This document shows, one piece after another, positions 235 to 37,138 of a DNA stretch of 37,209 bases (the first letter of the stretch is position 1; every line of letters starts with the position of its first letter). The DNA comes from Perkinsus olseni (taxonomy: Eukaryota), in contig JABANN010000344.1 in assembly GCA_013115125.1 (NCBI GenBank), forward strand, positions 1 through 37,209, read 5' to 3'. The notes below the pieces were generated by a model. That model was not told where the DNA came from, did not search any database, and saw only the letters and a list, made by a program, of their open reading frames with translations. The translations under genes were made by a program, and so were the position numbers.

Positions 235-1681
235 CTAGTCAACGGCGAGGGGGATATGAGAGACACCCATGGCGTTGGTTATCATAACGCAGACCGCAAA
301 GAGGGCTACGATGGTGATGATGACGAGGGTCCTAATGGCGAGCTTTCCACTCAGTCGAGAGGCCTCCTCCTTCATCACTTTCGCGAAGATGATGCAAGGA
401 CAGGTAACGAGAAGGAGAGTTCCCAGAGACCCACCCAAGAGAGATACGACATCAGCTATGCCAGGCACCAATATGGCAATGGTCAAAGTAACCACGAGTA
501 ACACCAGTGAAATGGAGATACGGAGTACTTTCTCGCCCCGACTCTCAGAACGGAGAGCTGAGGGAAGCCTGTCACGACGTCCGAGGAGCGGTTGACGGCG
601 TGATGTCATCTCTTTCATCGACGAAATGAAGTGCACTGCAGCTCTCGCAGTCGGGTTGGTGTTGATCGGGATGGAGCACATAAGGCTGAGTGCGAGTGCC
701 AAACGACAGAGGTTGATAAGAACGTCGTCGTGAGAGTAGTTGGTGATGTAATTCTGGTGAGTAGTTCCCAAGAAGCTGAGGTAACCGGACACACCGATGA
801 GGACGTAAAAGCCCAACTGCAACGTAGCCACTCTGAAACTGACCTGGAAGCATCTTTTTGGTGTGGGGTCCACGAGCTCGTTGGCAACGGGAACGACATT
901 AGTATGGCAGATGTAGGCGAAGAGGGTGATGGTCAGACACTTTAGGAGAGGCCACCCGAAACTGGCGAGGCTGACCGGAAGATCCTCTGGGAGAATCTCC
1001 GCGCGGCCAGGCGCTTCAATAAGGGTGCAAATTGCCGTAAAGATGAGGGCGGCTGTCGATATCGGTGTCACATGTCGTAGAACAGAAAGCTTCTCTGGAA
1101 GGACCAGTGGAATAGCTACGACCGCAACCAGAATTATGCAGAATGTGCGGGAGACGTTAACACCAATCCAAGCAAACAACGCGGGTAGGAAGTCGCCTTC
1201 TAGGATGAGGTAGGCAGTCATCGTACCCATGCCATAGAAGAACATAATGGCGTCCATGAGGGCCGCTGCCCAGCGACCGCAGCAGCTGCCTAGTAAGGAG
1301 CCATAGGAGCCTCGGCCTGTCCTCTGGGCTGACTCCATGAGAAGGTACATAGTGAGGACGGCTATGGCGGCAGAGATAACTAATAATAAAACACCGTTGA
1401 TGATACCCGCCTGAGAAAAGCTGCGATGAATCGATGGAAAACCGGAGCGAAAGCGGGCGCACCTGTTTCATGACGTAAGGCAGGCAGAGGACACCACCAC
1501 CCATCGATGTTGAGATTAAAGTAAACATCGACTGAGTGACGCCGCCAGGGGTGAGCTTGAAGGATCTCCTTTTCTTCTGAGAAGCTCCTTGACGGCTCAG
1601 ATCAGGTGTGGCCCTGGTCGCCACGCTCTCTTCTGATCCGAGACGCTGGTACACGGGCTTACTCTCGGGCACTGCCGGCAT
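235..1681 (-). CDS. Amino acid transporter (Aa_trans/AAAP, SLC38-like), 2 exons
   Basis: ATG at 1681 (MPAVPESK...), motif FTLISTSMGGGVLCLPYVMKQ, GT-AG intron 1411-1462, then a multi-TM ORF with FAYICHTNVVPV and GYLSF motifs to the stop at 235. Confidence 0.92.
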
Positions 1682-2072
1682 TTGATGAGGCAAGAGACGA
1701 ACAAGCAACTGCTGAAAGTTAAGCTAGGTACGACGACGAAGAAAAAAAGTACACAATAACACAAGACACGCAAGTTGAAACCGTTGAGACCCTGGGGGGC
1801 TTGCGTCAGTGAAATCGTACGACAGCTAAGCTCTTTGCTTCTAATGAATCTACGTCAAATGTCGCGGCTGATTCTCCACGTCTTTCTAAGAAGACCCGAC
1901 CACTAAAAAATTCTATCATCACCACCGCCATACGCAGGTAGGCCGACGTCGTAGGTGACCGCGCAGTTGAATTACTTGACGATGGAAGGGGGAACTAACG
2001 ATAGACAAGCATGGGTAGAGAGCACAGGTTAGCTCGGAAAAATGATCCAAACCGGTACGATCAGTTGGTAGA

Positions 2073-3621
2073 CTAGTTCACGGTCAAGGGGAGATGAGTA
2101 ATCCTCATAGCGTTAGTAACCATCAGACCGACAGCTGTCATAGCCACCACGGCTGCGACTGTCAGAGACCATACCACAACTTGCCCTAAAACTGTCCTGG
2201 ATTCGGTCTTCATGATGGTTGTAAAGATATAGAGTGGGCATATGATCATGATAATAGTACCGAGGGACCCGCCTAGCAAAGAGACAACATCGGCCACACC
2301 TGGCACCAAAATCCCGACCGTCAAGGTAACGGCCAAAACCAGGAAACTGAAGAATATCCTCATCGCTCTCGCCCCGTAAGTCTCCTCGTTGGCCGAGGAC
2401 ATCACCCGCCTTCTCGTAGGGAGGAGCTGATCTCCTCCAGAGACGGCCATGAGCTCTCTGATTGATTGGAAAAAATGTACCGCGGCCTTGGCAGTCGGAT
2501 TGGTGTTTATCGGGAGGGAAAACAGAAGACTACACGAAAGGGAGAGTCGACATAGACTGATGAGGATGTCGCCGGGAGGGTAATTAGTAATGTAGTTTTG
2601 GTTCGTCAGGTGGGAGAAACTGATGTACCCGGCGACGCCGATGACGATGTAGAACGACAGTTGAACGAATGCTACTCGAGAAGTCACCTTCAGGACTCTG
2701 GCGGGAGTTGGGTCGACAAGCTCTCCGGCGACCGGCACGACATTCATGTGGCAGATGTAGGCGAAGAGGGTGATGGTGAAGGACTTCAGCAGCGGCCACC
2801 CGAAGAGGGCCAAGTCCATCGGAGCTTGTGGGGGAAGCATAGTAGACTGTCCGCGAGCCTTCATCATCGTGATGGCAGCTGTCAGAATGAGGGAGAATGT
2901 AGCCACTGGTGAGACGTACTGGAGAGCCGACAAACGGCGAGGGAGCACAAACGGCACCGCGAATGCTGCGGCACCGACCATGCAGATGGTGCGACTGGCT
3001 CCAGGTACCCCGACCAATTCAAAGAGGGCAGGGAGAAAATCGCCAAGCAGTATGAAGTAGGCGATGACCGCGCCCATGCCGTAGAAAAATAGCACGACAT
3101 CCAGCACTGGAGCCACCCACTTCCCTGCACAGTAGCCCAGGAGCGAGCCGTAGGAATGCTTGTTGACTCTGATGGCACACATGATGAGGATGTACATCGT
3201 GACGAAGGCGATGAGCGAGGATATGCTCAAGAGAAGCACTCCGTTGATGAGACCAACCTGAGCAAAATGGGTTGGTCCTGGGTGGAACGACGACCGACGG
3301 TCTCACACGCGAAATCGACGAGTCATAAGCTGACGATAAACGGCGAATCCCGAGAAGCTGAGAATCACTAACCCGACAAGAGACTATTGCCACTACCTGT
3401 TTCATAACGTACGGCAAGCAGAGCACTCCACCTCCCATCGCCGTGGAGATGAGCGTGAATGTAGACTGCCTGATGCCTCCCGCAGTGAGCGGAGCGAAGG
3501 ATCTCTGCACGAAGCCCTGACGATAGGGTACAGGGCTGGCCGAGGAGGAGAAGTCCAATGGAGGGGCATTAACCGCCGATGGATCGAGAAGTCGAGTAGA
3601 CATTCCCTTTGCTGATTCCAT
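2073..3621 (-). CDS. Amino acid transporter (Aa_trans/AAAP), tandem paralog, 2 exons
   Basis: Same motifs (FTLISTAMGGGVLCLPYVMKQ; FAYICHMNVVPV). Intron 3258-3396 lies at the same codon as in the neighbouring paralog. Confidence 0.92.
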
Positions 3622-18810: not shown

Positions 18811-19857
18811 ATGCCACCGGAAAGCCCACTCGATGTAGTATCTTGGGCGGACCTGTAGTATAATAATCTGGTCCGCTTCAGGGAGGGTACGAGCAGCTCC
18901 ATTTGGATCCGTTGTTCCCTGTCTTCCCATCGTCCATCCATACCGAAGAAATGCCGGTGATGGAGAGCCCCGTCCCGGTGCCGCTATTTCCGAACCCTGA
19001 GTTGATCCATGAAGCGGCCCGACTCTCTAACGAGGTGGATTTAATAGCGCTCACCACTGCCGGAAATGGCGGCTCCAGTAGCACCAGCCCGCGGTCTCGT
19101 GCTAGCTCAAGCAGTAAGGGCTCGTCTAAGACGAGGAGAGCGTCGAACAATAAGGGGAAGTGTGCTTACCCGCTCGGATGCAACAAGTACAGACAGAATG
19201 GTGAGTCCATACGGAGCAGTCACGCCTCGTTGTTAGGCATAATTCAATTCAGGGACACGGTTTTGCGTGAAGCACGGTGGGGTGCGGCGATGTGCGGTGC
19301 CAGGGTGTCCCAATGCTGCTAAGCGCGGTGACACTACTAAGGCTGTGTAAGCGCTCTGGCTAGACTGTAGCACTTCCCTCTTGTTGCCGGAGTACCCATT
19401 GTCTAGGTTCTGCATTCGTCACGGCGGCGGCAAGTCCTGTCGTGTGCCGGGTTGTGGAGTGTCCGCCAGAGGCTCCACGGGCTACTGCTACAAGCACCGG
19501 AAGCTGACTACTGCGAGGTCTCGAAAAGATTCGACAGCCTCGACCGCGTCGGGCTCTGGGTCTGAGGAATCTCTGGTTGATCAAGGCCTCCAGCTCTGTA
19601 CAATGAGCCCATCGGCGCCCTGTGATGCTTCTGGGGTGGATCTTCAAGTGCCCGGTTTGACGGCTTCCCATTTGGACTACCCCTATTGGGGCAGCTCATC
19701 AGCAGCTGGAGAGGGCGATCCAAATCTGGCATCTCTCAATTTCCTTGGCGTAAGCGACGAGAAGTGGACTTCCTTCGTGAAGCCTATGGAGCCGCTGCCG
19801 GAGCTGCTCACGAACCATATCGACCCAGATGCCCCTGGAAAGCTCAATCTTTTTTAA
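18811..19857 (+). CDS. WRKY19-like C-x4-C...C-x2-HGG zinc-finger repeat protein (paralog A), spliced
   Basis: KCAYPLGCNKYRQNG|TRFCVKHGGVRRCAVPGC...|FCIRHGGGKSCRVPGCGVSARGSTGYCYKH. The start is uncertain and may extend upstream into the Q-rich frame. Confidence 0.8.
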
Positions 19858-20498
19858 TCGTTCACTCTGCTGTCGTCCAGGTCTCGGATCAGGTCGACTG
19901 GAGAGGAGTAGTTTGTAGTTCCTCCTCACTGTTCTTTGTAATTCAACAAGTAGTTCTTCGAGTCCACCTCTAACGTATCGTGCTACCTTCTCTTGCGTCC
20001 TCACAAGACGTCTCTTGCTTTTCATCTTCAACGAGAAGTTCAAGTACAGGCGGCTCGTGTCACCGTCCAATCAGTCGTTATCAAGGGAGGGTGTCCAACT
20101 CAGTGTATTTCTCGAGCTATCGTGACGACCTCTGGAGCGGTCAGCGCCTGTCCATTGCGCATTTGTTTTGAGCGCAATAAAGTTGACTACAAGATTGGCT
20201 GATATACGCACGAGCGCCTCCCGGTACACTTATAGCCTCCCATCTCAATTCCTGATTTCAGTAATGCTTCACCCACTCTGTCCACGATACGCTTCCACTA
20301 CCACGACTACCACTATAACTGTCCTGTCGTTTCGGCCCTGTCGCTAATTCATTGGGCCATCCATAAGTAACGCTGTGTCTCGTTCTATCGGCTATGTTGC
20401 GTTGCGGAGTTGATAGCTCGGGAGCTCCGCACAAACTCCGCACAAACTCGTCTTTTTTTTCAGTTTCGTACGGCTATTGGTGGCCGTTTGTCGTGTTC

Positions 20499-21233
20499 AT
20501 GGCCTTTGAGGTGGTAGGCCCGGCGAAAAAAGGGGCAGAGAAACGATGGCGCTGTGCATTCTCTGGAGGGTGTCAAAAGTATCGCCAGAATGGTGAGTTC
20601 CGCTCTCGACCTTAATCAGTCTAATAGATCATCGCCCGCGGTGGCTTAGGCACTCGATTTTGCGTGCGACACGGCGGAGCGCGAGCCTGCGGATTTCCAG
20701 GATGCACGGCTACATCGAGGAAAGGAGGTGAGGGAAAGTAAGTCCACCCAGGGAGGCGCTTTAAGAGCGTTATAATGAAGCTCCGGTATAGGAGCGCGGA
20801 GCGGACGCTGATACATCGCCTCAGATATTGCATACGTCATGGTGGTGGGAGACGCTGTACCTATCCTGGCTGCCATACCGCGGCGAGAGGAAGAACTGGT
20901 TTCTGCTATAGACACAAGAAATGCAGCAAATCGTCAAATGGAATCGATAGCAGTGCCATAGCCAGTTCCGGCGGCGCGGATTCTCTGATTGCTCGTTTGC
21001 TCCGCGACATCGACCAGCCCACCTCGTACGAGCCTTCGGAGTCCTCCAGTGAGACCACCGATATCACCGTGGATTCACCCACTGCCAGGCAATCGAAACA
21101 ACAACTACAACAACAACCACAACAACAGCAGCAATCGCAACTCTTTTCCTCTGCCGTTGATTTGTACGACCAGTGTTGCTTCTCTAGCAGTTCTGCTAGG
21201 GCTTCGGCGGTTCCCATGGTCTATCATTTATAG
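20499..21233 (+). CDS. WRKY19-like zinc-finger repeat protein (paralog B), spliced
   Basis: RCAFSGGCQKYRQNG|TRFCVRHGGARACGFPGC...|YCIRHGGGRRCTYPGCHTAARGRTGFCYRH. Introns fall at positions equivalent to paralog A; poly-Q tail. Confidence 0.82.
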
Positions 21234-21535
21234 TCGCTCATCCGTTTCATTCGGGCTGTTCCGGACTGGCATTGCCAGTGGGGTGAAGCCTTCGACACGG
21301 TTCAAGGTCAGGTTTCGAAGTACAGTATTTGCGATGTAACGTCGCGCAATCTTTCCCCGACTAGCGTTTTCTCTCCGCTACCGTTCAATATCGTCCAAAG
21401 CTCAACCGTATTGGTTTTAGGATTTAGGCTTCAGTCTGATGTACCTCTCGAGAGTGTCGCGTTAGGAAAAACGTCAATTATTGACCCTGCTCCTTAGTGT
21501 ACCAGGGGAGACGGTAACGGTTACAGTGCGGATTA

Positions 21536-21594
21536 AGATTCCATGCAGCGGTTACCCCTGGTAACTTACCAGGGGTAACCGCTGCATGGAATCT
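21536..21594. repeat. Perfect palindrome, 29-bp arms, 1-nt centre
   Basis: agattccatgcagcggttacccctggtaa-c-ttaccaggggtaaccgctgcatggaatct. Confidence 0.97.
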
Positions 21595-21777
21595 AGTCTA
21601 TCCGCCATAGACGATTCACGAATATCTCAGAATTTTATATCTCCACACTGGAGGAGCTTTCGCGAGTCACGCTAGCTCACATTAGCAGCTGTATCCCAAA
21701 TTTAGTGCACTGCTACGGGTTCCATCATCTATTCTTGGCATGGTTATCACCTTGAGTGATAGTCAGCCTGGCTAAGT

Positions 21778-21824
21778 CAGGTGATACACCTATTCTTACT
21801 GAGTAAGAATAGGTGTATCACCTG
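21778..21824. repeat. Perfect palindrome, 23-bp arms, 1-nt centre
   Basis: caggtgatacacctattcttact-g-agtaagaataggtgtatcacctg. Confidence 0.97.
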
Positions 21825-22158
21825 TCTTCGACCGTTGGCCACCGTAGTGATACCGGAGATGGTTCGAGACTCGGATCCACTCGGATTCCGAGTGAGTCTC
21901 ACGCCGGCTGAGACGACGAATAGGCCGACTGAGTCCCTTTTTCGTCAGCGAGTCACTAGGCATTTGAGGCAACCTACTGTCGTCCGTCTGTTGCGACTCT
22001 CTGCCTGTGAGCAGCTTGTTGACTTTTCCGGTGTGCTATCTCTCAGCTAGAAACTAACAGCTACTCCAAGCCATACCAACAGTTAGCACTTTCTCACGAA
22101 ATCCAGCGGCAACGAACCGGTGAGTCTGAGCAGCGTAGTCATGTGGCCCTATGTTTCC

Positions 22159-24222
22159 CAGGAAATTTTCCTGCGGAAAACTATTCCTCTTATTTCATAG
22201 GAAGAAATTCTTCATAGGTTCGCATTCAATGCGATCCAAGTCACTGACCTCTAAACTGACTTGAAGCCAGCTCAGCAAGGTCGAGGACACTGCACCGAAG
22301 ACATTCAATGAGGAAACAACCGAACTCCTCATCAACGTGGTAGTGGGCCGTTCAGGCCCTGAACTTCAGGGCCATGGTTGCCAGGCTGAGCAGTTCCTGG
22401 CGGCAACTCCCATGAGCTCCTGCCACTCTCCCCGGCGGAGAAGGTGAGACTCCGAACTCTACTATATCACCTCACTTCCAGTGACAAACCAGAATACGTT
22501 ATACCCTCGCGTCGCCGAATCACTCGGTCAGACACATGCACCCAACCGAGTTGGGCTGTCAGTCGCAGCCGCTCTGTACTCGATAATCAGACGATGACTA
22601 CTCAGAGGTTCTGCTGCTCCAAATATATCTCAAGTCTCGAGAATCTCAAGAGTTGAGATTCAAGAGTATGACGTCAACAGTAGTTGACTCCGAAGGTCGT
22701 AGCCGCGTCAAAATCATTCCTGCGCTGATCCACGATGGCACCGTCAGTGTTGGCGCCAACTTGGCGCCTATGCCATGCGCGCTAAATCTATGGTATTACG
22801 GATCGATGAAGCGGTCGAATTACTCTGCTTTAAATATGCGAAAGCCGATACAGGCTTTTCATTGAAAAATTTAAAAGTTGGCCAAGCTCACGGGCAACGC
22901 TTGGGAAATTAATCCGACTGATACGTTCAACCGACCCGCACATGCGATTGGACAGGTTGGGCTTCGGCGTCAATATAGCTCCCAGTGTCCTTAGAAGGAT
23001 CATAACGCATATTCTTCGGAGGGCTCCGAGATGAGAAACATATCCGACCAATCGACGAAGTAGAGCTGGAAGCCGCATTAAGAGGCTCAGGGTGGCAAAT
23101 TTAGGGAAACATTGGGCGAAGCTTCCTTCTTTCCGAAATTCCATGGAAAATTCAAGCTAATCAAACGCCGCCGTGAGTTCGAGTTCCTCAAGCTCATGAA
23201 GCGACATTGTCGCTGCGACATAGCGAGCTGAGTCCCTCAAGTGCATCTCCGTCATCTTGATCTAACTAATCTTGTTACCCAGCTTGCTAGTAGCAAGTTG
23301 CTACGGTAGCCCAGTTATCAGCGGCTCGCTGCATTGAAGTAGCACACCGGTCCTGGATCAGCTGTCAGGATCGGCTAAGCCGATTCGGCTTCCGTATCCA
23401 CGGTTGTCAGGCTAAGCAGTTCCTGGCGGCAACTCCCATGAGCTCCTCATACCGAATCCCGCTCCCAGGGAGCGTTTAACGGTCGTTATTCGAAACCAAA
23501 CTCAATGCGAAAGCAAACTATGTCAGTCACGTCGACGACGTGTGAATCGGCTGCTGACAGCTACTTGGCGTGGAATCTACAGCGTGGATGTATCAAACGA
23601 GAGCTGAACTTTGTCAGCCAAGGTACGTAACACTCGTGCAGAAAGCAATAGCAGAAGCCGGCGTTTCCACTCGGGCAACCGACCTCGCAGGCTGCACGGA
23701 AATGCTGCAATTTACGAACATCCAGAAAAGGCTCACTGAGTCAGGGTTGAGCGAATAATTCCCGAGTTCAACTCGGCAGCTCGGCGAGCTGCCAGAGGGA
23801 AGAGCCCGTCGGGTGGCTGGTGAGAGTTGCAGTATGACAATGACAATTTGAGCGGAAAACGAGATGAATGTTGCAAATTGCATCCCGCAACGCGGACGCG
23901 TAACCGAGCAACCGAGCCTCGTTCGACTTCACCCGAGGTCGAAGCTGAAGTCGAAGCAGTTTTCGACTACTTATGACATGACTTCGCGTAGATGCGGTGT
24001 CCCCTGACTCAACTTGGATTGAGTCTCGTGAACATGCCGTGGTGAATGTCATTCAGTGAATGGCTAGTACTCCACTTTGAATAATAGTAGAGACCATTGC
24101 TAGACGCCGCTGTGCGCGGCGGTCACAGCGGCGCTAGGCACATGCATCGCACACGATGCATCGGTCCGATGCCATCGGAGCTAACAGGTCTTAGTAACTT
24201 AGACTAAGTTAGACCGTCTAAC
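22159..24222. mobile_element. Cluster 1 of putative hAT-type excision footprints (T1-7 + rc(T) + T2-8)
   Basis: Perfect at 22350-22371, 23283-23304, 23370-23391 and 24158-24179. One mismatch at 22159-22180 and 23200-23221. Compound at 23762-23791, nested at 24187-24222. The sequence pattern is clear; the transposon origin is inferred. Confidence 0.8.
22372..23447 (+). repeat. 50-bp direct repeat (22372-22421 and 23398-23447), 3 mismatches
   Basis: ccaYggttgYcaggctRagcagttcctggcggcaactcccatgagctcct occurs twice, 1026 bp apart. Confidence 0.9.
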
Positions 24223-24429
24223 TGATACAACAAAGATTTCGCTCATCAAATGGAGGTCGATTTCTCACTGCTAGCCCCTAGTATACACGCTGTAGACGCA
24301 TATCTCAGTCAAGAGCTCCCTATCACTACCAGGATTGACTTAAGAGACTTCAGAGCGCGACAAAGGCGTTTAGATAGAGGAAAGACAGTAACGTTTGGTG
24401 AACTCCGAGGAGATTATCTACCAGTGAAC

Positions 24430-26678
24430 TCAGGATAAATCCATGGCAGCGGGGGCAGTGAACTGCCTGAGTGACGGGAACGGGTCATTCGAGGCACCTG
24501 TGAAGTTGATAATCTCTAATACTTCATGTAAAGCAACGGTACCTCCAGCTGGAGGCAATCCGGCAAGCATCTTCCCAGTGCGCGTATCTTCAGCAGCGCT
24601 CAGCTCCCGTCGAATTTCAATCGTGATCTGCAAAATGAAGTCAGCAACAGACCGGCTCGGTGTCCACGGTCAACCTGTGATACGTGCCGATATATCCATA
24701 ATTACCTCTTTATGAGGATGAGCCTTCATGACCGCCTTCAACGTTTGGATCTCCGATTGCGACAGCTCGTGTTTGTACCTGATACTTCCCAAATGGCAAG
24801 AGAGCGCTCGAGCGTAATGAGCGCACCTCTGCACGAATGCGAGGAGGGACTGATGCCACAGGACTGGCATCTCCCTCTCGTCCGGTATGAACCCCTTGTA
24901 ATGATCAACAACAGCAGTGACAGCTCTCTTAGGCAAAGAGTACCTCAGGAGAAGAGCGATGGCCATAGGAACAGCCCTATGGGCCTACTTCTTGTTGATG
25001 ATGGTCCTGATAGCGATGCTAGCGGTTGGACCGGGCCAGGAATAGCCAGAGAGCTGGCAAAGTCTGACTAGGGCAGCCGCAGAATGAAGCACCGGGAGGG
25101 AACACTTAGACAGCACCTGCAGATACTCGAACTCAGGAACACGAAAGCCGTTCAGATTGTTCACATAAAACAAGCGCCCCACAACCAATTTCACTCAGGG
25201 CACACGATTTACTCGCAGGCCATCACAAGTGCGGGAAGGACGCTGTTCAATCGGAAAGACAAGACCGGAACGTTGGTGGCAGTGCTCCCCAACCCGCATC
25301 CCATACTACACTGCAAACGATGACTGCCTCCCTGATGGTACAAGTAGGGCAGATAATCAACGGCAAGAAGATACCCTTGAACCACGCTGCTGGCTTGAAA
25401 GTAGCGGCCTAGGTTGAGCGGGAAAAATCGAACAGTTGAGAGGAGGCAGTTTACTTTGAGAGCCTCATAGTAGTGGAAATTGAGTCGTTTATTCACAGCA
25501 ATGTCCTCTCGAACAGCGGGAAGGAGCACCTGGAAAGACACTAATGAGAGCCAGCCTGATCCAAACGAGCAACAACGTACCAAGTTGAGGTATCTTTGCG
25601 CTTGCTTAGGGCTGAGGTTGGAAACGAAGATCTTCGTAGCTTCACGAGTAGCGGCAGGAGTCCATTCCACAGGATTAGTGATGAATAAAACCTGACCTCG
25701 GGACCACATGCCTTCTCCTGAGCAAGATCATCGCGATTACTTCTTCCCAGTTGATCAGACTCGGGATGATCTTGAACGCCTTAGGTATCTTACCGGACTT
25801 GTACGTACTCAACCACTTACCAATGTCAGAGTATCTACGAAAACACAGTCCCTTTAGCAGAGCGACTGCTGTAATTTTCCCTACACTCTCACAACCTGAG
25901 GGTTGATAGCCTCGCTAGCATCCTCAGCCGACTGAACCTTGGATCCTCCACCACTCGACCCAGCTTCTCGCTCACGAAGCTGAGCAAATTTCCTTCGTCT
26001 CTTGATCGTACATCGCGTAGTACCTTCTGTTCAATGATATCTGCGAGTGTCAATCTTTTGGGCTCCTCTTCGTTCGATCTGAACTGCGCCTGCGCGGCCT
26101 CGTCTGCCTCCGTGACCTCGGCTCCAATCCGGACCTAATTCCAATCAATGTTGACCGAGGCGAGGCGGCTATCAGCAACCCAAGAGCAACTCTTACACGG
26201 CCTTCTTCGTCCACTTCTACTTCGCCAGCTTCGACCTCGGGAGTCTGAGAACTCGCGAAGTGCCGTATGTACGGAGACATTCGCGTTACTTTAGCATCTC
26301 CATCTTCAGCTTCTTCCAACTGCTGCTGTTGTGCAGCTTTAAGAATACGTTCAGTAATCTTCGAAGGGACAGACTCCATGCCCTGACTTTAACCCGCTAC
26401 TCACTCTCCATTACAGAGTGTATGCTTCCTCACCTCGTCCGGCCCACCAGTCCCTCTATGGCGGCCCTTCTTCTCACGAGGCACTTTCGAAATCCCTGCC
26501 TCAGCATCAGCCTGATTAAAAGCATAATTATTAGAACGTTTTGTAAGATCCACGGGTAGGCGAATAGCCGTCCCTTTGTTCTGGCTAACCCCCCCGGTAG
26601 TACCTTCAAATCCTCGAGGAGAGGACCGCTGCGGAGCTTCTTAGTGTCCGTGGCCGAAGATCGAGGGGCGCGTGGCAT
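24430..26678 (-). CDS. BYSL: Bystin / Enp1 (40S ribosome biogenesis factor), multi-exon
   Basis: [93 protein letters not shown] and ITIEIRREL. Confidence 0.95.
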
Positions 26679-26923: not shown

Positions 26924-28120
26924 ATGTGGAGGGCTGGTGTCCTCATAGTGAATCTATTAGTCATACACGTAAAGCTGAGTAACTTCTGCGAAGGAGCAAC
27001 TGGTACTGCCCGCCCCTACAAGAACGCCCTGGTTAAGATGCCTATCGAGGATGGGCATGTTACTGTGAATATTAACGGGCAGGATCAACACCTTCGTCTC
27101 GATACCGGCTCTTCTCAGCTGCGTGTCGTGGATGGTGACTGGTATGAGAGCCGATACGGTGAAGATGCCTGTTTGACGCCTAATAAAGGGTGTTTCTACT
27201 GCCCCAAGGAAGCGCTCTGTGACTTTGACAAGGATCCAACTCTCACGACATCGCACTCTGCTGACGGATCTATCATCAAGAGTCTGTCCCGCCATGGCTC
27301 CTTGACACTGGGTAGCTGCCGGATCGACAACTTTCCTTTCAGAGTGTCAAGAGAATTCTCGCCGAAACTCAAGCCACCACCGAGAGGCTACTTCGGCATC
27401 GCTGCTCCCCCGCAAAGTTTGCAGGGTTATCCTGACGGCTCGAGCTTCCTTGAATCTCTCTCTCGCTCCGGGACCATCACCAAGCAGGTTTACTTTGTTC
27501 GAGCACTCCCAACAAACTACTCAAAATACATCACTGGCGAACTGACGCTCGGTTACGGGATAGACAAATCCATGGCGGGGAGGAAAATCGGCTCCTTTCG
27601 CTTTTTTCATGGCCCATTGAGTCATCAGGGGTTCCCAACTGTGCGAATTGTCTTTGTGGGATTGTCGAACACAGGTGAGAGCCCCTCAGGTGGAGAAATG
27701 TATGCACACCGATATCGGAAAGTATTCCCGTCCGTCCTTGACACCGGGTCCACGGCGTTGTTCCTGCCACTACCGACCTTACTCGAAGACATAGTGATGG
27801 AGCTGAGAAGGAATCTTAGGGCTAAAGGGTACGAGGAGCGTGTGATCGCGAGCAAGTATCTTCTCAAAGACGGTAAGCTGGCGGTGTACAAAAACGTTGT
27901 GGACGCTCTACCAGTTCTCAACATACGTATAAGTGATCAAGGAATGAGCGTCCTTGTACAGCTGCATCCGAGGCACTACTGCCAGGATGCAAGGGTGCCA
28001 AATTCTTGTCAAGCTGCTGTAAGTTCTAGTAGTATCTCTAGCTTGGGAACTCCCTTCTTCTTGGCCTATAGTATGCAAGTCGACCACACGAATCATGAGA
28101 TATCTTTATTCGAGAATTGA
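26924..28120 (+). CDS. Secreted pepsin-like (A1) aspartyl protease, intronless
   Basis: Hydrophobic signal-like N-terminus, two catalytic motifs LDTGSS and VLDTGST, C-terminal LGTPFFLAYSMQVD. Confidence 0.9.
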   Translation: MWRAGVLIVNLLVIHVKLSNFCEGATGTARPYKNALVKMPIEDGHVTVNINGQDQHLRLDTGSSQLRVVDGDWYESRYGEDACLTPNKGCFYCPKEALCDFDKDPTLTTSHSADGSIIKSLSRHGSLTLGSCRIDNFPFRVSREFSPKLKPPPRGYFGIAAPPQSLQGYPDGSSFLESLSRSGTITKQVYFVRALPTNYSKYITGELTLGYGIDKSMAGRKIGSFRFFHGPLSHQGFPTVRIVFVGLSNTGESPSGGEMYAHRYRKVFPSVLDTGSTALFLPLPTLLEDIVMELRRNLRAKGYEERVIASKYLLKDGKLAVYKNVVDALPVLNIRISDQGMSVLVQLHPRHYCQDARVPNSCQAAVSSSSISSLGTPFFLAYSMQVDHTNHEISLFEN

Positions 28121-29221
28121 CAGTGCGAGAAACATGCTGCGAGAAGTTATGATCATGTTGCTGTTGTGATGTTGTTCTGAACCGACATCTGTGAGTGATG
28201 TGTCGGAGTACTCAGTGTTCTGAGTGTCAGTACCACCCAGCGAATACCCGCAGAGGAGCGCTGCCGGTAAGAGGACCCTTTGGATCTCCTTGAGGCCAGC
28301 GGACGATCTGCCGATGTGACTCAGGTTGCTCAGACTCTGAGTACTTAGTCGCTGGGCTGTACTCTGAGTATCTGAGTAGTTAGTTGCATTACCGTAGTAA
28401 CCTACTTTGAACCGCTGAACCTTGCCCAAAGGGAAAGCTTATCGGCTTCGAAGTGCCTTGACGTCAAAGGATAACCACCGAAGTGCCTGCGCGTTTATAC
28501 CACGATATCGCTCCCTAGTAGACACCCTCTCTGTGAGGAACTCGCCCCTCATTACGCAAGTGCGATACTGCCACAGTATGCCATCTCAGCTGAGTTTCAT
28601 CTTGATATAATAATCATCAAACCCGAGTATCTTCGGGTCCTGGAGCTGGTGGACCAGCCAGCCGATGCCTTGCTACAAAACCCTTGTGAGGTTCTATCTG
28701 TCGCGAAGGTTCAGCCACCCGGGCTCGAGCGGTTAGCGACTGTTACACATGCAGAAAGGCTCAGCGGCGGCGCCGAGCGAACGCGCTCTTATTACCTGCC
28801 GAGTCGGCAGGTAATAGTCGGCAGTGCCGACTATGTGAGTCGGCTATGTATGCCGCAGCTATGTGAGTCGGCAGTGCCGACTCACTAACACAACTACCTT
28901 GCAAGTCGCAGGTATTACTTAGCGACAAGTAGAGATGAGATGAGAGAGATCGAAGAGCGAAGAGATACTTATCGAAAGGGATTTGTTTTAGCACCGTGAA
29001 ACTTCCACTAGAGACTTTGCCCCAGTCGAAGTTCACCAGCTGAACTACCTATGCTTATTATACCTGTTACAGATGACGTATATAGCACTCCGGTAGAATG
29101 TATCGAACAATGAGCTTTCTGCCCTCGCAGGTTGCAGGAGCCTTCACTTGAGTAGCGAGCAGTGGGCACTATGTGAAGAGCACACAGGGTACATGACCTT
29201 CTGAATCGTATCACAGACTCT

Positions 29222-29633
29222 TCAGCAGTTCCCATTCTTCAGGACGTACACTTCGCAGTCACCTCGAGGTTCGAGGATTATGACATCAGGCCCAGGGAAG
29301 TAAGCCACACGCTGCCAAAACTGGGGATATAAGGAATACGCTTTGGCAAAGTTTGTGAACTGCTCGGACGACACATCGACCTCGATACGATGGTCTGCGA
29401 AGCCTAGGATGGGAATGCCGTCGGCACGGACCTGTGTGTCACCCGTCAAAGTGAGAATAGTCATGGTGCCTTCCGACTCGGAAGGCACCTCTCGGAAGTT
29501 CCGAGAAACCGAGCGCCCAATCGTACCCGCGCGCCTCTCTACACGGAGTACAGTAGTGCTCACTGCGAGGAGTGAAGGCCTCGGTGCTCCTAACTGCGAG
29601 GGCCACCAGGCAGAAGATAGCGGTGCTTATCAT
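29222..29633 (-). CDS. Small, probably secreted hypothetical protein (signal-peptide exon plus second exon)
   Basis: Signal-like MISTAIFCLVALAVRSTEA, a GTGAG donor-like site, then another open frame ...GTMTILTLTGDTQVRADG...DVIILEPRGDCEVYVLKNGNC*. Splice junction not fixed. Confidence 0.55.
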
Positions 29634-31126
29634 AGATCTTTCGGTAACTCTGACAAAAGCCTAACAAGGTAGCGTGTCTTGAGGCATTGAAACTGGCCCT
29701 CACTAAAGTTGAGGATTCGCTCCAAATCAAACTAAGCGCGAAAGTGAGGAGCGTTGACGGGCAGGTCACAGCGGTGCAGCTTACAGGGTTCTAGGCACGG
29801 AATAGCTCAATGGATTGCTGTAGGGCACAACTTGTGCCGCACAAGCTGCGCCCATCTGACGGGAACGGGCAACCAGGGATTGGGGCCTCTGCACACTGTT
29901 TGACTTTTACGGCGAGGCCTCTCAGCGGTGATAGCCCCCCAACTTGGCTGTCTCGGGAATCCCGAGTCGGGATCCCCTCTCTTCAGCGAACTACTGCTGA
30001 TAACGCTGGTCCTTTTTGCCTTTACGTCTGTTGAAGGAGACACATTATGGCGATCAAGGCTTGAGCGTAGCTCATATGTGCATGCGTCGAAAGCTCTGCG
30101 GGCGTGTCTTAGCTGCAGGTCGAGTCTTCCCAGTGCCAACTCGAGGGCGTCATTGACTGCAAAGTTACTAGAAAATTAGAGAGATACTAAGTATGATTAG
30201 GATATCATCAGGCAAGTCATACTCATAGTTTCATGTTTCGGGAGTAATCCGCAGCTGCAGTACGTGATGCGTACTACGCATATCCATAGCTCAGTCCGCT
30301 ATGTCCCTGCCTGCAGCGGAGCGGTCGTCAGCATATTCATGAAAAGTAGGCTTCAATTAGGAGCCCTTCTTAAAGAGTGCTGTGCGCAGCACCAACCTTA
30401 GGGGACAGACTTTTTGTGTTATTTGGGGAGAGGAGCCTTTTTAGGCGCAGTTTCAGCCTCGAAATATGCCAAAACCCCAGAATCTGGAGCCCATATTCTA
30501 GAGTCCACAAGATCCTCGACAAGCTACCTTCGGAACATCGTTGTCCGGACTAACGCCGACATCGTCGGGCGCAGCCCAACATTTAGGAAACGGAAGTGAC
30601 TCAATCTCGGCTCAGCCGGCAGTGTACTTACGTGACGTAAGTATATGTAAGCACGTAAGTATAGATAACTTACCTAAGGTAAGTTACGTACCTCACGGGG
30701 TAGTCATTGCATGCGGTCGCATTGGTGCCGAGTCGGCACTGCCGACTATCCCACTCGCCGAGTGGCACCAAGCGTATTTCACGCTAGCATTGTCACCCCG
30801 CATTCGGGAGTACCGCAGCGGGGCATGAAGTGTAGAGATTGTCCCTATATTGCACAGTGATTGTCTCATATTATAAGTTTTTGCTGCGTGACACAGCCTG
30901 TGTCGTTCATACCGTGACGCTAGAGCGCATTACTCAGATGCTATTGTTATTTTAGCTCGTGCAAAACCCGCGACCTTTGCTCATACGGAGTGCTTTGGGT
31001 TCGCGTGGGGTTTAACTTACTACGAAGTGCGGAGACAATTCCGGAAAAGTTGTTTCGGCATCTCTGGTATACCGCCAAGTCCGTCGCGGTAAACCGGCGG
31101 GCATTCCGGAGATTATGTATCACACG

Positions 31127-32338
31127 GTGACAAACTCAACATTCTGGAGATGATTGGTTCATCAGCTTTAAAAGCTGTGCTACAACTCCCTCTTAAATCC
31201 AGAATCTGAATAGCATCTTCCTCATACGTAAGAGGCGAAATAATGGGTCGGGGAGATATGCTGACTCTAAAAACTGTGGAACGCTCCCGTGTCCTTCATG
31301 AACAGTTCAAGAGACATCTCGAGCGGCCTCCCGGATTGAGTAGGGAGAACCAGAGGCTCTGGTCCAGAGCTGCTGTCGTTGTCTGTAATCTCGGCTTCGA
31401 AGCCCTGAAGAGAGGATAATACCACTCTCGAAGAATCAATCCACGGAACGCGTCTGTGTACTTCTGATACTCTAGGGGGGACTAGAGTTGAGTCTGTCGG
31501 ACTGCGTACGACCACGTCGGGACTGGTTGGACGGGGAGTGGGTGGTGATGTAGACCTCAAACACGTCCACGGCCACGAGAACGAGGATCTTCTTTTAACC
31601 TGCTCGTAATCCCGTGACACCCGTTCTAAGCCGAACATGTGAAGAAAGGATCTTATTCCTGCTCACTGTCCGGTTATGTAGAGACTGGACGGCCAGAGCA
31701 CTCATATGCTCTCTTCTCATGTTCTGCAAGGATTTCCTCCTGTCATTCCATTCCCTGTTGTCGCACCACAGCTGACGAATTGTTTGTAAATTCTCGTCGT
31801 AGAGCTTCTGACGATGCTGACAATAGAGAGCTCGATATTCAGTTGAAGGAGTAGATAATGGCAGTGACAACAATCACAACGGGAAGCTGCGCCCGCATGA
31901 ACGAGGAAATCTGTACGGACGTTTGGGTCCTCACCTTAATTTCTCTGGAATGCATTCTCTCAAGTCTTTCTTGCTCCTCAGCGCACTTCCGCAGCTTCTG
32001 TTCCAGCAGTCTCGCGTATTCTTTGAGACCTTCGTAGTCTTCACGCGGCACAGTCATGTTAAGCTGTAAAAATCTGCGGAATATGGGTCTTCCCTACTAT
32101 TGTTATGACTCAACACCCAATGAGTTGCTGAATATTCGTGGTATGCAGCATATAGACTCAATTAAGCTGAGACGCCATTCAAGGCAGCACCGGGAGTGAT
32201 GCTGCCTTCAGGGCCACTTTACACTCTCGAGGCCTCTTACTACGTCTATCATCAGAGAGGCTCTGGTAGAGGATTTCGTGATAGCTGAACAGAACGAGGC
32301 CCGACTTCGTGACCTGCAGAGGGCTCCTGAGTCGTTTC
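31127..32338 (+). repeat. 1.2-kb segmental duplication, copy 1
   Basis: Colinear with 35942-37138. The offset is 4815 at the left end and 4800 at the right, explained by indels of 14, 3, 1 and 1 nt. Confidence 0.97.
31267..32057 (-). CDS. Hypothetical spliced coiled-coil protein, copy 1
   Basis: MTVPREDYEGLKEYARLLEQKLRKCAEEQERLERMHSREIK|HRQKLYDENL... with GTGAG donors. The phase of the 3' exons is uncertain; may be a pseudogene. Confidence 0.55.
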
Positions 32339-34103
32339 TGAGTGTCATTGACGGTGAAACGTTGATGGAGATCATTGCTGTTACCTGTGCTTCCGGGCGA
32401 CTCTTGCACCATCTGTTTCAAAGACTATCCGCCCTTCGGGCCCCACGGCTACTTCTGAGAAGTGACATCTCGTGATGAGAATCTCATCCTCGTTACACGC
32501 TGTCACGTTCAACACCGTATGGTCTATTCACGCCGGCAGTTGTACAGAATTGATCTCCGGGACTGTTATCCAATCATTGTCAGCATGTTAGTACAATAGC
32601 GACTTCATCAATCCATAATTCTCCTGAGATTATCTTCGGTCACATTGCGATAATCGCCGATATCTGCATAACCGTGGTTGCTGAGCAGTTATGGGCAAAA
32701 TTCGAAGTTCGAGGGGTGTGACCCCAATTAGCACTGCTAATTTAGCAGCCTTGAAGGTTGCTTGTTGAACCTTCATGTTGTCAATGAGAGCTTATCATAG
32801 TTTGAGCTTCTCCAAACGCAAAGCTCCTATACCCCAATAGTTTTCCCAGCCGACTGCGAGAGGAACGCTCCGTGAGCGGCTCACGGTGAGCCTCAAGTCG
32901 TGACACCTGCGTTTGAAAGCAAAACTTGTGACACGTAGTACGGGAGCATATTGAAGATGCCCCCTTCTATATCCTCAACCATTATATTAACAACACCACT
33001 ATCAAGAGCTTTCGAAATTCCTCATAACGTTTCATGCCGGCCACAACCATCGACTGAAGATGCTCCAAAATCCCGTACTGTTGTCTCGGGCTCTCCTCTT
33101 GTACCTATATCTTCAACGTACAAGATTCAGAATTGTAGGGGTCTGAATGTGTTGTTAGCGGTATGTTACCGCCGGTAACCAAGGGTTAACGGTGAGAACG
33201 GACGCATCCAAGACTTGGTTTCCAAGTATGTCGAGTGAATTAAACTTAAATGCGACGTGTGAATTTCGCACGCTTGGTGGTGAGAATCATGAGAGTGAGA
33301 CGGGTCTCGGGGCCCTCGTCTGAGGAGCACGGGTCCGACTCGGACCCTGAGTAGACTCAAAGGTTGCCCCAAAGGGTCATTAGGGTTACAAGCAATTACA
33401 AATCGCGAGCTTGCCATTACGATAATATCTTCGCTCGACTCGCATTCGCAATCGTGCCCTCAATCGTATTCCGGGCCGGAATATGCACGCAGTAATAAAA
33501 TTCGGGTTTGGCATACTTAGGATTTCAGCAAGGATTTCTCACTGGTAATTCAGAATAGGCTACAATCGCACTCTCGGGTCAAGACTCTTGACTCAAGAGT
33601 CTCGCCGCCACCTTCGTCAAGCTTGCACGAGAGGAGGTGTAACCGTTACACTGCGATGAGTAAAACACTGTGAAACTGTCAGAAATGTTGGAAAATTTTC
33701 TGTCAATTCTTGTAACAAAACTATGGACGTTCGAACATTCCACCCTCTGACTTCTTGAGCTTCCTCGTCAATTCATCAATTTCGGTTTTTGCCCTGGCCA
33801 GCTCGAGTGCCTGAGAAGGCCCAAGAGTCCATCGCGTGGAGACTTTCACGATCGAAAAGTGACTTTTCAAAAGTCGCTCAGTGCAAGGGCGGCCCTTGAA
33901 GGGTCCCTTGCCAAGGGGTAAAGATTAGCGACTACTTGTGCGGCACAAGTTGTGCCGAGTAGCGGTTCCGGAGTGTACTATACTGCTTCTCGAGCGCTTG
34001 CGCATCACTGGTCCATAATCCACCACCAACCTGCAATGGGGCAAGATTCTGCACAAGACCTACCGGACTCATGAATTATGATGATTGTCCAACCCTAACT
34101 GTG

Positions 34104-34310: not shown

Positions 34311-35544
34311 ACGGAGCTGTCTCTCTGTAGCAGATGTCTGGTCGGCGCCCTACCCAGGACGCACCGACTCATGATGTACGACAAAAAGTTGCCGGCAATC
34401 CATCTAGCATAAACTTTGCTGATGGTCCTACTGTAGGACCATCAGCAAAGTTCCTACATCCGGTCTTGATTTGAGCAGGCCACACAGGCGATAGGTTCTC
34501 GAACGCCCCTGAAGCGAGAAAAGATTAACTCGCAGCTGGTACGCCTTCGTGATAGTGATCTCTGGCCCACCGAAAATTCCGGTGCGCCTAGTTATTCCCG
34601 GCTGCAAAACGTTCCTGGTTGATGCTCATCGTTTGGAGCAGGCAACAATGGGAAAGTGAGAGAAGAGGAATATCCCTTCAGCTTACCTCCGATGACGTCG
34701 CGGCATGATGGTATCTTTGTAGGTCCATTTGAAACCCGAATGAGTCTTTAGTCAAGGCCAAAGACTTGATCACCCGACAAGAGTGGCCCCACCAATTCTG
34801 ACTGTGGGGTCGAGCTGTTGGCTAGTGACAAACTCAACGTGGTCCTAAGCACTAGCCGGGTTGGTTTAACCCAAAAATTCCGGGCCGAAATACTTCGCTA
34901 CACGAAGTAACCCCTCACAGCTGAGCACACCGACATCCACTTATGAAAGATAACGTTTCGACGCTGCAACATAGCGTCCCTGACCACCATTTCAGCTCCG
35001 GTACCCTGACGAGAGAATACTGCGACACTCGGGGAGTCCGAAAGTGAGTTTCTCCATCTCTGGTGAGCTCGGTGGGTTTAGAGTTCAGTGAGAAGAACTG
35101 AGCCCGAGCACATCAGAGCTGGTTGGACGGGATTCTGGTCCACGGGAATATCGGAAACACCAGCTATCCCCCGCTAATAGTGCTCAATTAATGACGCAAT
35201 TCCCCATGAGTTGCTGACTATTGTTCTGTCATTGCTCACAACACGATCATCAGTATGTAGGACCGGAGCCGCCGGAGTCCGGCGGAACGTAACTACTGAC
35301 AACAATAGACCGAGCATGACTGAGATTTATCTAGAGGAGCCTTGGTCAGATGAGTCCGCTAGCCTCTAACGCACAGCATCCCTTCGGCTAAGGATAGGCC
35401 CCCGAAAAGAGCAAGACTTCCGTGGTCTCCCGACAATTAACGCACGACGCGGAAGCGGTTTGAATCTAAGGGCTGCTCTAAGAACGAGACACCGGTTCCA
35501 CGATTAATCGAAGATTTTTTGGACTTCGGATTTCGAAAATGCGT

Positions 35545-35941: not shown

Positions 35942-37138
35942 GTGACAAACTCAACATTCTGGAGATGATTGGCTCATCAGCTTTAAAAGCTGTGCTACAG
36001 CTCCCTCTTAAATCCAGAATCTGAATGACATCTTCCTCATACGTAAGAGGCGAAATAATGGGTCGGGGAGATATGCTAACTCTAAAAACTGTGGAACGCT
36101 CCCGAGTCCTTCATGGACAGCTCAGGAGACATCTCGAGCGGCCTCCGGGATTGAGTAGGACGAACCAGAGCTGCTGTCGTTGTCCGTAATCTCGGCTTCG
36201 AAGCCCTGAAGAGAGGATAATACCACTCTCGAAGAATCAATCCTCGGAACGCGTCTGTGTACTTCTGATACTCTAGGGGGGACTAGAGTTGAGTCGGTCG
36301 GACTGCGTACGACCACATCGGGACTGGTTGGACCGGAAGTTGGTGACGTAGACCTCAAACACGTCCACAGCCACGAGAACGAGGATTTTCTTTTAACCTG
36401 ATCAGTGATCCCGTGACACCCGTTCTAACCCGAACGTATGAAGAAAAGGATCTTATTCCTGCTCACCGTTCTGGTATTCTGAATTGAGGCGATTAGCCCC
36501 CGCCATTGCTGTCTGAGGCGTAGCCAAGAACTGTTCAACTTCTCTTCCCGCTGACTCTCATCGTACAAGAGTCGACGAAGCTTTTTTAAGTCCTCGTCGT
36601 ACAGCTTCTGACGATGCTGACAATAGAGAGCTCGGTATTCAGTTAAAGGAGTAGATAATGGCAGTGACAACAATCACAACGGGACGCTGCGCCGGCATGA
36701 ACGAGGAAATCTGTACGGAGGTTTGGGTCCTCACCCTCATTTCTCTGGAATGCATTCTCTCAAGTCTTTCTTGCTCCTCAGCGCACTTCCGCAGCTTCTG
36801 TTCCAGCAGTCTCGCGTATTCTTTGAGACCTTCGTAGTCTTCACGCGGCACAGTCATGTTAAGCTGTAAAAATCTGCGGAATATGGGTCTTCCCTACTAT
36901 TGTTATGACTCAACACCCAATGAGTTGCTGAATATTCGTGGTATGCAGCATATAGACTCAATTAAGCTGAGACGCCATTCAAGGCAGCACCGGGAGTGAT
37001 GCTGCCTTCAGGGCCACTTTACACTCTCGAGGCCTCTTACTACGTCTATCATCAGAGAGGCTCTGGTAGAGGATTTCGTGATAGCTGAACAGAACGAGGC
37101 CCGACTTCGTGACCTGCAGAGGGCTCCTGAGTCGTTTC
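35942..37138 (+). repeat. 1.2-kb segmental duplication, copy 2
   Basis: Matches 31127-32338; both copies begin gtgacaaactcaacattctgg and end gggctcctgagtcgtttc. Confidence 0.97.
36082..36857 (-). CDS. Hypothetical spliced coiled-coil protein, copy 2
   Basis: Near-identical exon 1 (MTVPREDY...) and a strongly diverged exon 2. The stop is at 36082 or 36122 depending on splice phase. Confidence 0.55.

Follow-up and report, generated by a model that had tools for sequence, protein, structure and literature searches.

The closest described relatives of the structure considered here are the footprints of hAT transposons. The transposases of this superfamily are described as cutting the non-transferred strand first and sealing the flanks into hairpins (PMC6900584), and Ac/Ds footprints, known from plants, Saccharomyces cerevisiae and Candida albicans, are palindromic insertions whose central base complements the one that adjoined the element and which arise by hairpin opening and mostly by microhomology joining, with arms of up to 20 nt in budding yeast (PMC5873905, PMC1978519). 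The footprints of Perkinsus olseni resemble them in geometry and probably in origin, but those of Ac/Ds are varied and mostly short, with 28 types among 128 in Candida, whereas P. olseni has one dominant format that adds 14 bp, uses the whole inverted duplication and lends itself to reading in layers, being preserved in fossil form at about 166 per Mb of the DNA sampled.

Repeated insertion and loss at a single site, with footprints across lineages, are also described for Stowaway in a beta-amylase intron of Triticeae; that element belongs to another superfamily, and its events were deduced from a tree of separate alleles, in contrast to the two that appear stacked within one allele here (PMC1925063). 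Our search of the literature, covering few subscription journals and no supplements, returned no report of Perkinsus footprints or of nested hAT footprints and none on the ploidy of P. olseni. The locus described below lies in a stretch of 37,209 nt of P. olseni DNA, which was analysed as a whole and is called the window. It makes up an entire contig (C2618) of a 39.9-Mb assembly, and one of its frames shows 100% identity with a named protein of P. olseni.

The scar format in the window and in a wider sample

The scar format is defined as target[1-7], the reverse complement of the target and target[2-8], i.e., 22 nt from an 8-nt target with a net gain of 14 bp. The window was scanned with 112 formats (targets of 5–11 nt, 0–3 nt lost per side), and 40 third-order Markov shuffles served as the null. 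It contains 13 perfect, 10 one-mismatch and 9 two-mismatch scars against 0, 0 and 0.2 in the shuffles, and among the long formats of the 112 geometries only the 8-nt target losing a single base on either side was enriched; a 9-nt format with the same loss and a format without loss were both unseen in the window. For hAT footprints, PMC5873905 gives a palindrome about the complement of the base that adjoined the element and the loss of a single base from each flank, and this is what was found here. Wrong geometries gave 0 for three formats and 1–2 for three others, which were read as shadows of the true format. Random 14-nt deletions gave 31 matches per 200,000, those traced being edges of existing scars, members of a long-arm class or the nested site itself, so that this null is an unclean one.

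The derivation of the scar from a plain 8-bp target is borne out at two places where both states are present:

23577 to 23584, no strand assigned: plain 8-mer in the window, at which runs X7 and X8 carry an exact 14-nt scar insertion, a reciprocal polymorphism
31349 to 31370, no strand assigned: perfect scar carried by one of the two copies of a direct repeat of 1.1 kb, the other copy having a 14-nt gap near 36150

The two copies of this repeat (31127–32250 and 35942–37060, about 1.1 kb each) lie 4.8 kb apart and are 94% identical over the aligned stretch, with the last 250 nt nearly identical and a diverged patch near columns 580–690.

All 32 scars of the window are confined to 21.5–35.9 kb. 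The gene-rich first 21 kb is free of scars; open frames at 235–3239, 19381–21233 and 26924–28120 represent tandem amino-acid transporters, two WRKY19-type zinc-finger proteins and an aspartyl protease. Two perfect scars, at 29824–29845 and 33935–33956, are exact reverse complements of each other (the same target in opposite orientation) at a distance of 4.1 kb, and at 32450–32488 two degenerate scars overlap with an offset of 17 nt, the collapse of one improving the other. Long palindromes with a single central base occur at 21536–21594, 21774–21828 and 34412–34452 (arms of 29, 27 and 20 nt), where hairpins were probably opened at a distance from their tips; the stretch 21518–21572 is skipped in X8.

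A larger sample of 603,412 nt, consisting of the window and 91 pieces of a 39.9-Mb assembly (G000), was searched after low-complexity matches had been dropped. It yielded 62, 55 and 57 scars with 0, 1 and 2 mismatches, 174 in total. The density of scars in it was put at about 166 per Mb, or about 6,600 scars when extrapolated, both figures coming from a non-random sample, the pieces of which were picked partly for hAT matches and are skewed to contig starts. Over 117 scars, with both orientations pooled, T at target position 2 and A at position 7 were enriched (44% each), as were C/G at the target ends (positions 1 and 8). Hermes, with its target preference nTnnnnAn, has a similar T2/A7 bias together with an 8-bp duplication and flank hairpins (PMC10368747, PMC6900584), whereas the bias of P. 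olseni is weaker than that described in PMC10368747, the full pattern being present in 23 of the 117 targets, and is joined by the C/G preference at the ends.

A second class of footprints, in which both inverted target copies are kept and longer arms are combined with filler, was represented in the sample by 21 rows, 12 of them exact and with arms of 7–17 nt, a count that has no null behind it. The same hairpins as those proposed below, when opened distantly and failing to pair over the duplication, are predicted to give this outcome. Two examples lie in the window:

28796 to 28831, no strand assigned: second-class footprint that retains both inverted target copies; the arms of its palindrome measure 13 and 10 nt and are joined over 3 nt
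29470 to 29505, no strand assigned: second-class footprint with arms of 12 and 8 nt

The nested footprint and its alleles

The structure of main interest and its surroundings are as follows:

24187 to 24222, no strand assigned: nested footprint, an outer 22-nt scar that a second event enlarged by a further 14 nt; over its 36 nt it departs from the two-step model by 1 mismatch
24189 to 24210, no strand assigned: inner, younger scar, the 8-nt target of which straddles the outer scar's left junction; mismatch at 24192
24190 to 24203, no strand assigned: 14 nt missing in one allele of run X8, the removal of which leaves a perfect outer scar
24158 to 24179, no strand assigned: neighbouring perfect scar, kept in the X8 allele that is without the inner scar
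24042 to 24063, no strand assigned: degenerate scar of the same local cluster, 2 mismatches
24670 to 25914, minus strand: exon frames of a Bystin gene; some 450 nt separate the last matched one from the nested scar, which is situated in non-coding DNA

A first-pass annotation had divided these 36 nt into 22+14, with an inner scar on the target tctaagtt containing one mismatch, an outer scar on ggtctaac that becomes perfect on collapse, and another perfect scar next to it. The sequence and coordinates agree with it on every point: the sole mismatch is in the left arm of the inner scar, the collapse does restore the outer scar, and the neighbouring scar is perfect and separated from the nested one by 7 nt. 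The inner target begins 2 nt within the outer scar and consists of 5 bases of the outer left arm and 3 bases of the outer inverted middle. Repeated collapse revealed no third layer at this site. If the four bases were equally frequent, a perfect outer scar would appear on collapse with a probability of about 6e-8 per scar, which amounts to 2e-6 over all 32 scars of the window. Chance as the origin of the nested scar was rejected on this value and on the 13 perfect scars of the window, against none in the shuffles. Just to the left of the 24158 scar, at 24105–24157, two more inverted-repeat stretches do not fit the 22-nt format, and the alleles vary around them (a joint at 24046–24090 in X7 and a loose end at 24144).

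Four runs (X3, X6, X7 and X8) were compared over 21400–25400, while X9–X11, with a share under 0.1, were left out. The contigs of X3 and X6 show 0 differences and 0 gaps over 23418–25400, and both runs are possible sources of the DNA of the window. One X8 contig (record 22; 747 nt, depth 67.4 of 94, 3.1% substitutions) lacks 14 letters at 24190; placements of the gap at 24190–24192 leave a perfect outer scar, while other placements leave mismatches. Its length and gap total imply 17 missing letters, and since all 17 are itemised, it retains both the outer scar and the 24158 scar; the outer-scar state rests on these itemised gaps. This X8 allele is the intermediate with the outer scar only, the very state that the first-pass annotation had proposed to look for, and peeling the nested scar recovers a state that exists in another isolate. 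A second allele, present in X7 and X8, is 10.7% diverged, with 41 letters left out at positions that are not itemised, and is thus unread at the site; none of the intermediate states seen was incompatible with two +14 events.

An assembly artefact was rejected, the X3 and X6 contigs being identical and the diverged X8 allele having the outer scar too; as X3 and X6 are possibly the source of the window itself, the X8 allele is the stronger argument. When 23900–24500 was compared with the G000 assembly in search of a paralogous copy, only the site itself was matched.

The contigs of X7 and X8 that span the scar at 22350 are each 14 nt shorter than the window, with a single gap at an unlisted position. 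Both runs also have a 282-nt skip at 22400–22683, in which no duplication or terminal repeats could be noticed by eye, and a 50-nt direct repeat is situated at 22372–22421 and 23398–23447, about 1 kb apart, with a joint in X7 and X8 going back 1,007 nt between its copies.

The order of the two events follows from the anatomy of the scar. The junction created by the outer scar is part of the inner target, which was therefore absent before the outer event, so that the outer scar came first and the inner one second. Together with the outer-only allele of X8, this supports the earlier suggestion that two successive events occurred at one spot and can be ordered in time. The two-step order holds, the X8 allele being without an outgroup and hence compatible with a later 14-nt reversion as well.

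Nesting and local scar density

Collapse of all 174 scars exposed an outer scar in four cases, namely at 24187 and 33883, where it was perfect, at one of the sampled loci (L049), where it had 1 mismatch, and at 22153, where it had 2. The other two cases of the window are:

33883 to 33918, no strand assigned: second nested footprint, with the inner target 1 nt into the outer scar and 1 mismatch in 36
22153 to 22188, no strand assigned: weaker nested candidate with 3 mismatches in 36

The local density of neighbouring scar pairs was used as the null for nesting. The four cases stand against 1.1–2.0 expected over 603 kb (Poisson p = 0.03–0.15), a count that is small and biased by the choice of the window for its nesting, and outside the window one case was observed against 0.7–1.35 expected (p = 0.5–0.7). 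The check proposed in the first-pass annotation, whether nesting exceeds the random level, came out negative.

These counts bear directly on the idea that there were two events, but that the element prefers to re-hit at or near old footprints by local hopping with relaxed target choice. It is an extension of the two-cycle hAT explanation, compatible with it, and in our opinion rather unlikely. Two clean nested cases in the window against 0.3–0.6 expected speak for it, as does a scar shifted by 1 nt beside one of the element copies described below. The inner target of 24187–24222 fits the target profile poorly (5 of the 117 targets score as low or lower, leave-one-out), and scars with a neighbour within 100 nt (26 vs. 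91) have poorer targets at p = 0.04, a weak value given that three cut-offs were tried (p = 0.07 at 30 nt and 0.55 at 300 nt); together these give a weak hint of local hopping. Against it are the overall and outside-window counts, the selection of the window for nesting, and a density of scar pairs that hardly changes between 50 and 500 nt. The view that nesting points to targeted re-insertion was likewise not supported, since the counts match the expectation from local density and scars are not markedly better targets (mean target weight 1.10 inside scars vs. 1.00 in the flanks). The nested overlap is best seen as an expected product of a dense, locally clustered footprint record, for which no new mechanism is needed.

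Probable origin of the scars and what they may record

Two separate cycles of hAT insertion and excision are, in our opinion, the likely explanation of the nested scar, which by its sequence looks and would work like a hAT excision footprint. The scheme is built on what was observed, namely the geometry, the order of events, the intermediate allele, other sites that occur both empty and scarred, and a hAT element flanked by an 8-bp duplication. In the first cycle, an element would insert and duplicate its 8-bp target X. On excision, each flank would be nicked one base outside the element and sealed as a hairpin. The nick of Hermes is offset by one base into the flank in the same way. By our own derivation, the hairpin of the left flank would be X[1-7]+rc(X) and that of the right flank rc(X)+X[2-8]; host enzymes opening both at least 8 bases from the tip would produce complementary overhangs, the annealing of which across the inverted duplication would give X[1-7]+rc(X)+X[2-8] and a gain of 14 bp. 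In a later cycle, limited to the lineage of the 36-nt allele, an element would insert 2 bp into the outer scar and leave likewise, adding 14 bp more, and the single substitution would have arisen with or after this second cycle. We infer that such hairpin chemistry operates in P. olseni. Loss of classical end joining as a cause of the uniform scar was not supported: a Ku-like gene is present, with two above-cut-off matches to the Ku domain on one contig.

Eleven matches to PF05699 were found in G000. Contig C521 (L104, 1–2953), a collapsed repeat of 2,953 nt, has an 819-codon open frame in which PF05699 scores above the cut-off, together with DUF4371; a protein 76% identical is found in P. marinus. 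Scored with the catalytic motif patterns of hAT transposases, this frame matched the three acidic residues, CxxH and RW of the signature. It is, from these features, a full-length-looking and putatively autonomous hAT element. Two left and two right flanks (L109–L112) point to two copies in the assembly, the pairing of flanks across contig ends being deduced from shared 8-mers. Both ends of copy A carry a 16-bp terminal repeat, and the identical 8-mer on either side of it forms an exact duplication. Copy B has nibbled ends, a left flank of X[1-7]+rc(X) and a right flank of rc(X) (7/8) followed by X[2-8], beyond which there is a further scar with the target shifted by 1 nt. In our reading, copy B either was joined again to its own flanks after their hairpins had been opened or was inserted into the middle of a scar; either way, it ties the C521 family to the scar format, and this family may have made the scars at 24187.

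Some observations fit this explanation less well. No element-filled allele of 24187 was seen among the rows listed for the four runs over 21400–25400, a listing that is short of 241 substitution rows and 67 indel rows; the score of the inner target is one of the lowest 5 among 117, and a minority of targets carry the full Hermes-type pattern. Furthermore, with two copies against some 6,600 extrapolated scars, long serial hopping or other hAT families would be needed. The ends of L116 (G000:C366) and L119 (G000:C1571) resemble related hAT ends, with 2 mismatches to the 16-bp repeat and a G-rich subterminal stretch, and possibly belong to such other families. When the window and an early set of loci were scanned for terminal repeats combined with an 8-bp duplication, simple repeats alone were detected.

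The genome has 18 matches to the domain of MULE transposases, which likewise form hairpins on the flanks; several of these matches are in open frames of 600–935 codons (those of 693–935 codons being on G000 contigs C204, C226, C433 and C45), and a MULE or some other transposon with an 8-bp duplication might have produced the scars instead of hAT. Muta1, a MULE, resembles the present case in its flank hairpins and duplications of 8 or 9 bp (PMC5499845). It differs in its mostly precise excision in yeast (>90%), and the same source reports no base lost in the hairpin, which was sized on a gel as 43+43 nt, a resolution at which one base could escape. The window has neither a 9-nt format with a one-base loss nor a format without loss, and the flanking of hAT copy B by two half-scars also argues against this origin, which we regard as very unlikely. 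The IS1595/Merlin domain, as a further alternative, had no match in G000.

It is also highly improbable, in our estimation, that one complex repair event made all 28 extra bases and that the X8 allele later lost 14 of them by slippage between short direct repeats. The arms of the inner scar are indeed direct repeats 14 nt apart and able to slip, complex footprints with extra templated filler are present in the sample, and the X8 allele is not polarised by an outgroup. Against this, the inner 14 nt have the exact fixed format centred on complemented bases, which a random fold-back need not yield, and they copy the outer junction, while the long-arm class copies the flanks. Moreover, an exhaustive search for interrupted scars gave 14 with a 14-nt interruption, 3 of which fit the nested model at 1–2 mismatches in 36, while the other 11 have at least 5. 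Replication template switching without any transposon makes short reverse-complement copies (PMC8794818), but it has four free switch points and gives no reason for a fixed geometry or a hAT-like target bias, and it can hardly be credited here.

The likely explanation thus remains that of two successive hAT cycles, and the new data on it are the intermediate allele, the nesting null and the hAT element, which has terminal repeats of 16 bp, a duplication of 8 bp and a second copy lying between two half-scars. A broader picture may tentatively be sketched, which we put forward as a conjecture of fairly low probability: a hAT family of few copies has hopped thousands of times in Perkinsus, with a tendency to strike again where it had been before or close by, and near-uniform +14 repair has turned these sites into a self-writing, layered record. 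If this is true, one could count successive jumps, put them in order and use them to mark lineages among isolates. The footprints of most transposons vary too much to be recognised once the element is gone, whereas the fixed format found here allows them to be peeled layer by layer. As the format is fixed and peeling recovers a real allele, the scars would be usable as ordered and nearly homoplasy-free lineage markers of Perkinsus, and they may also serve as a gauge of past hAT activity and of break repair in an alveolate.
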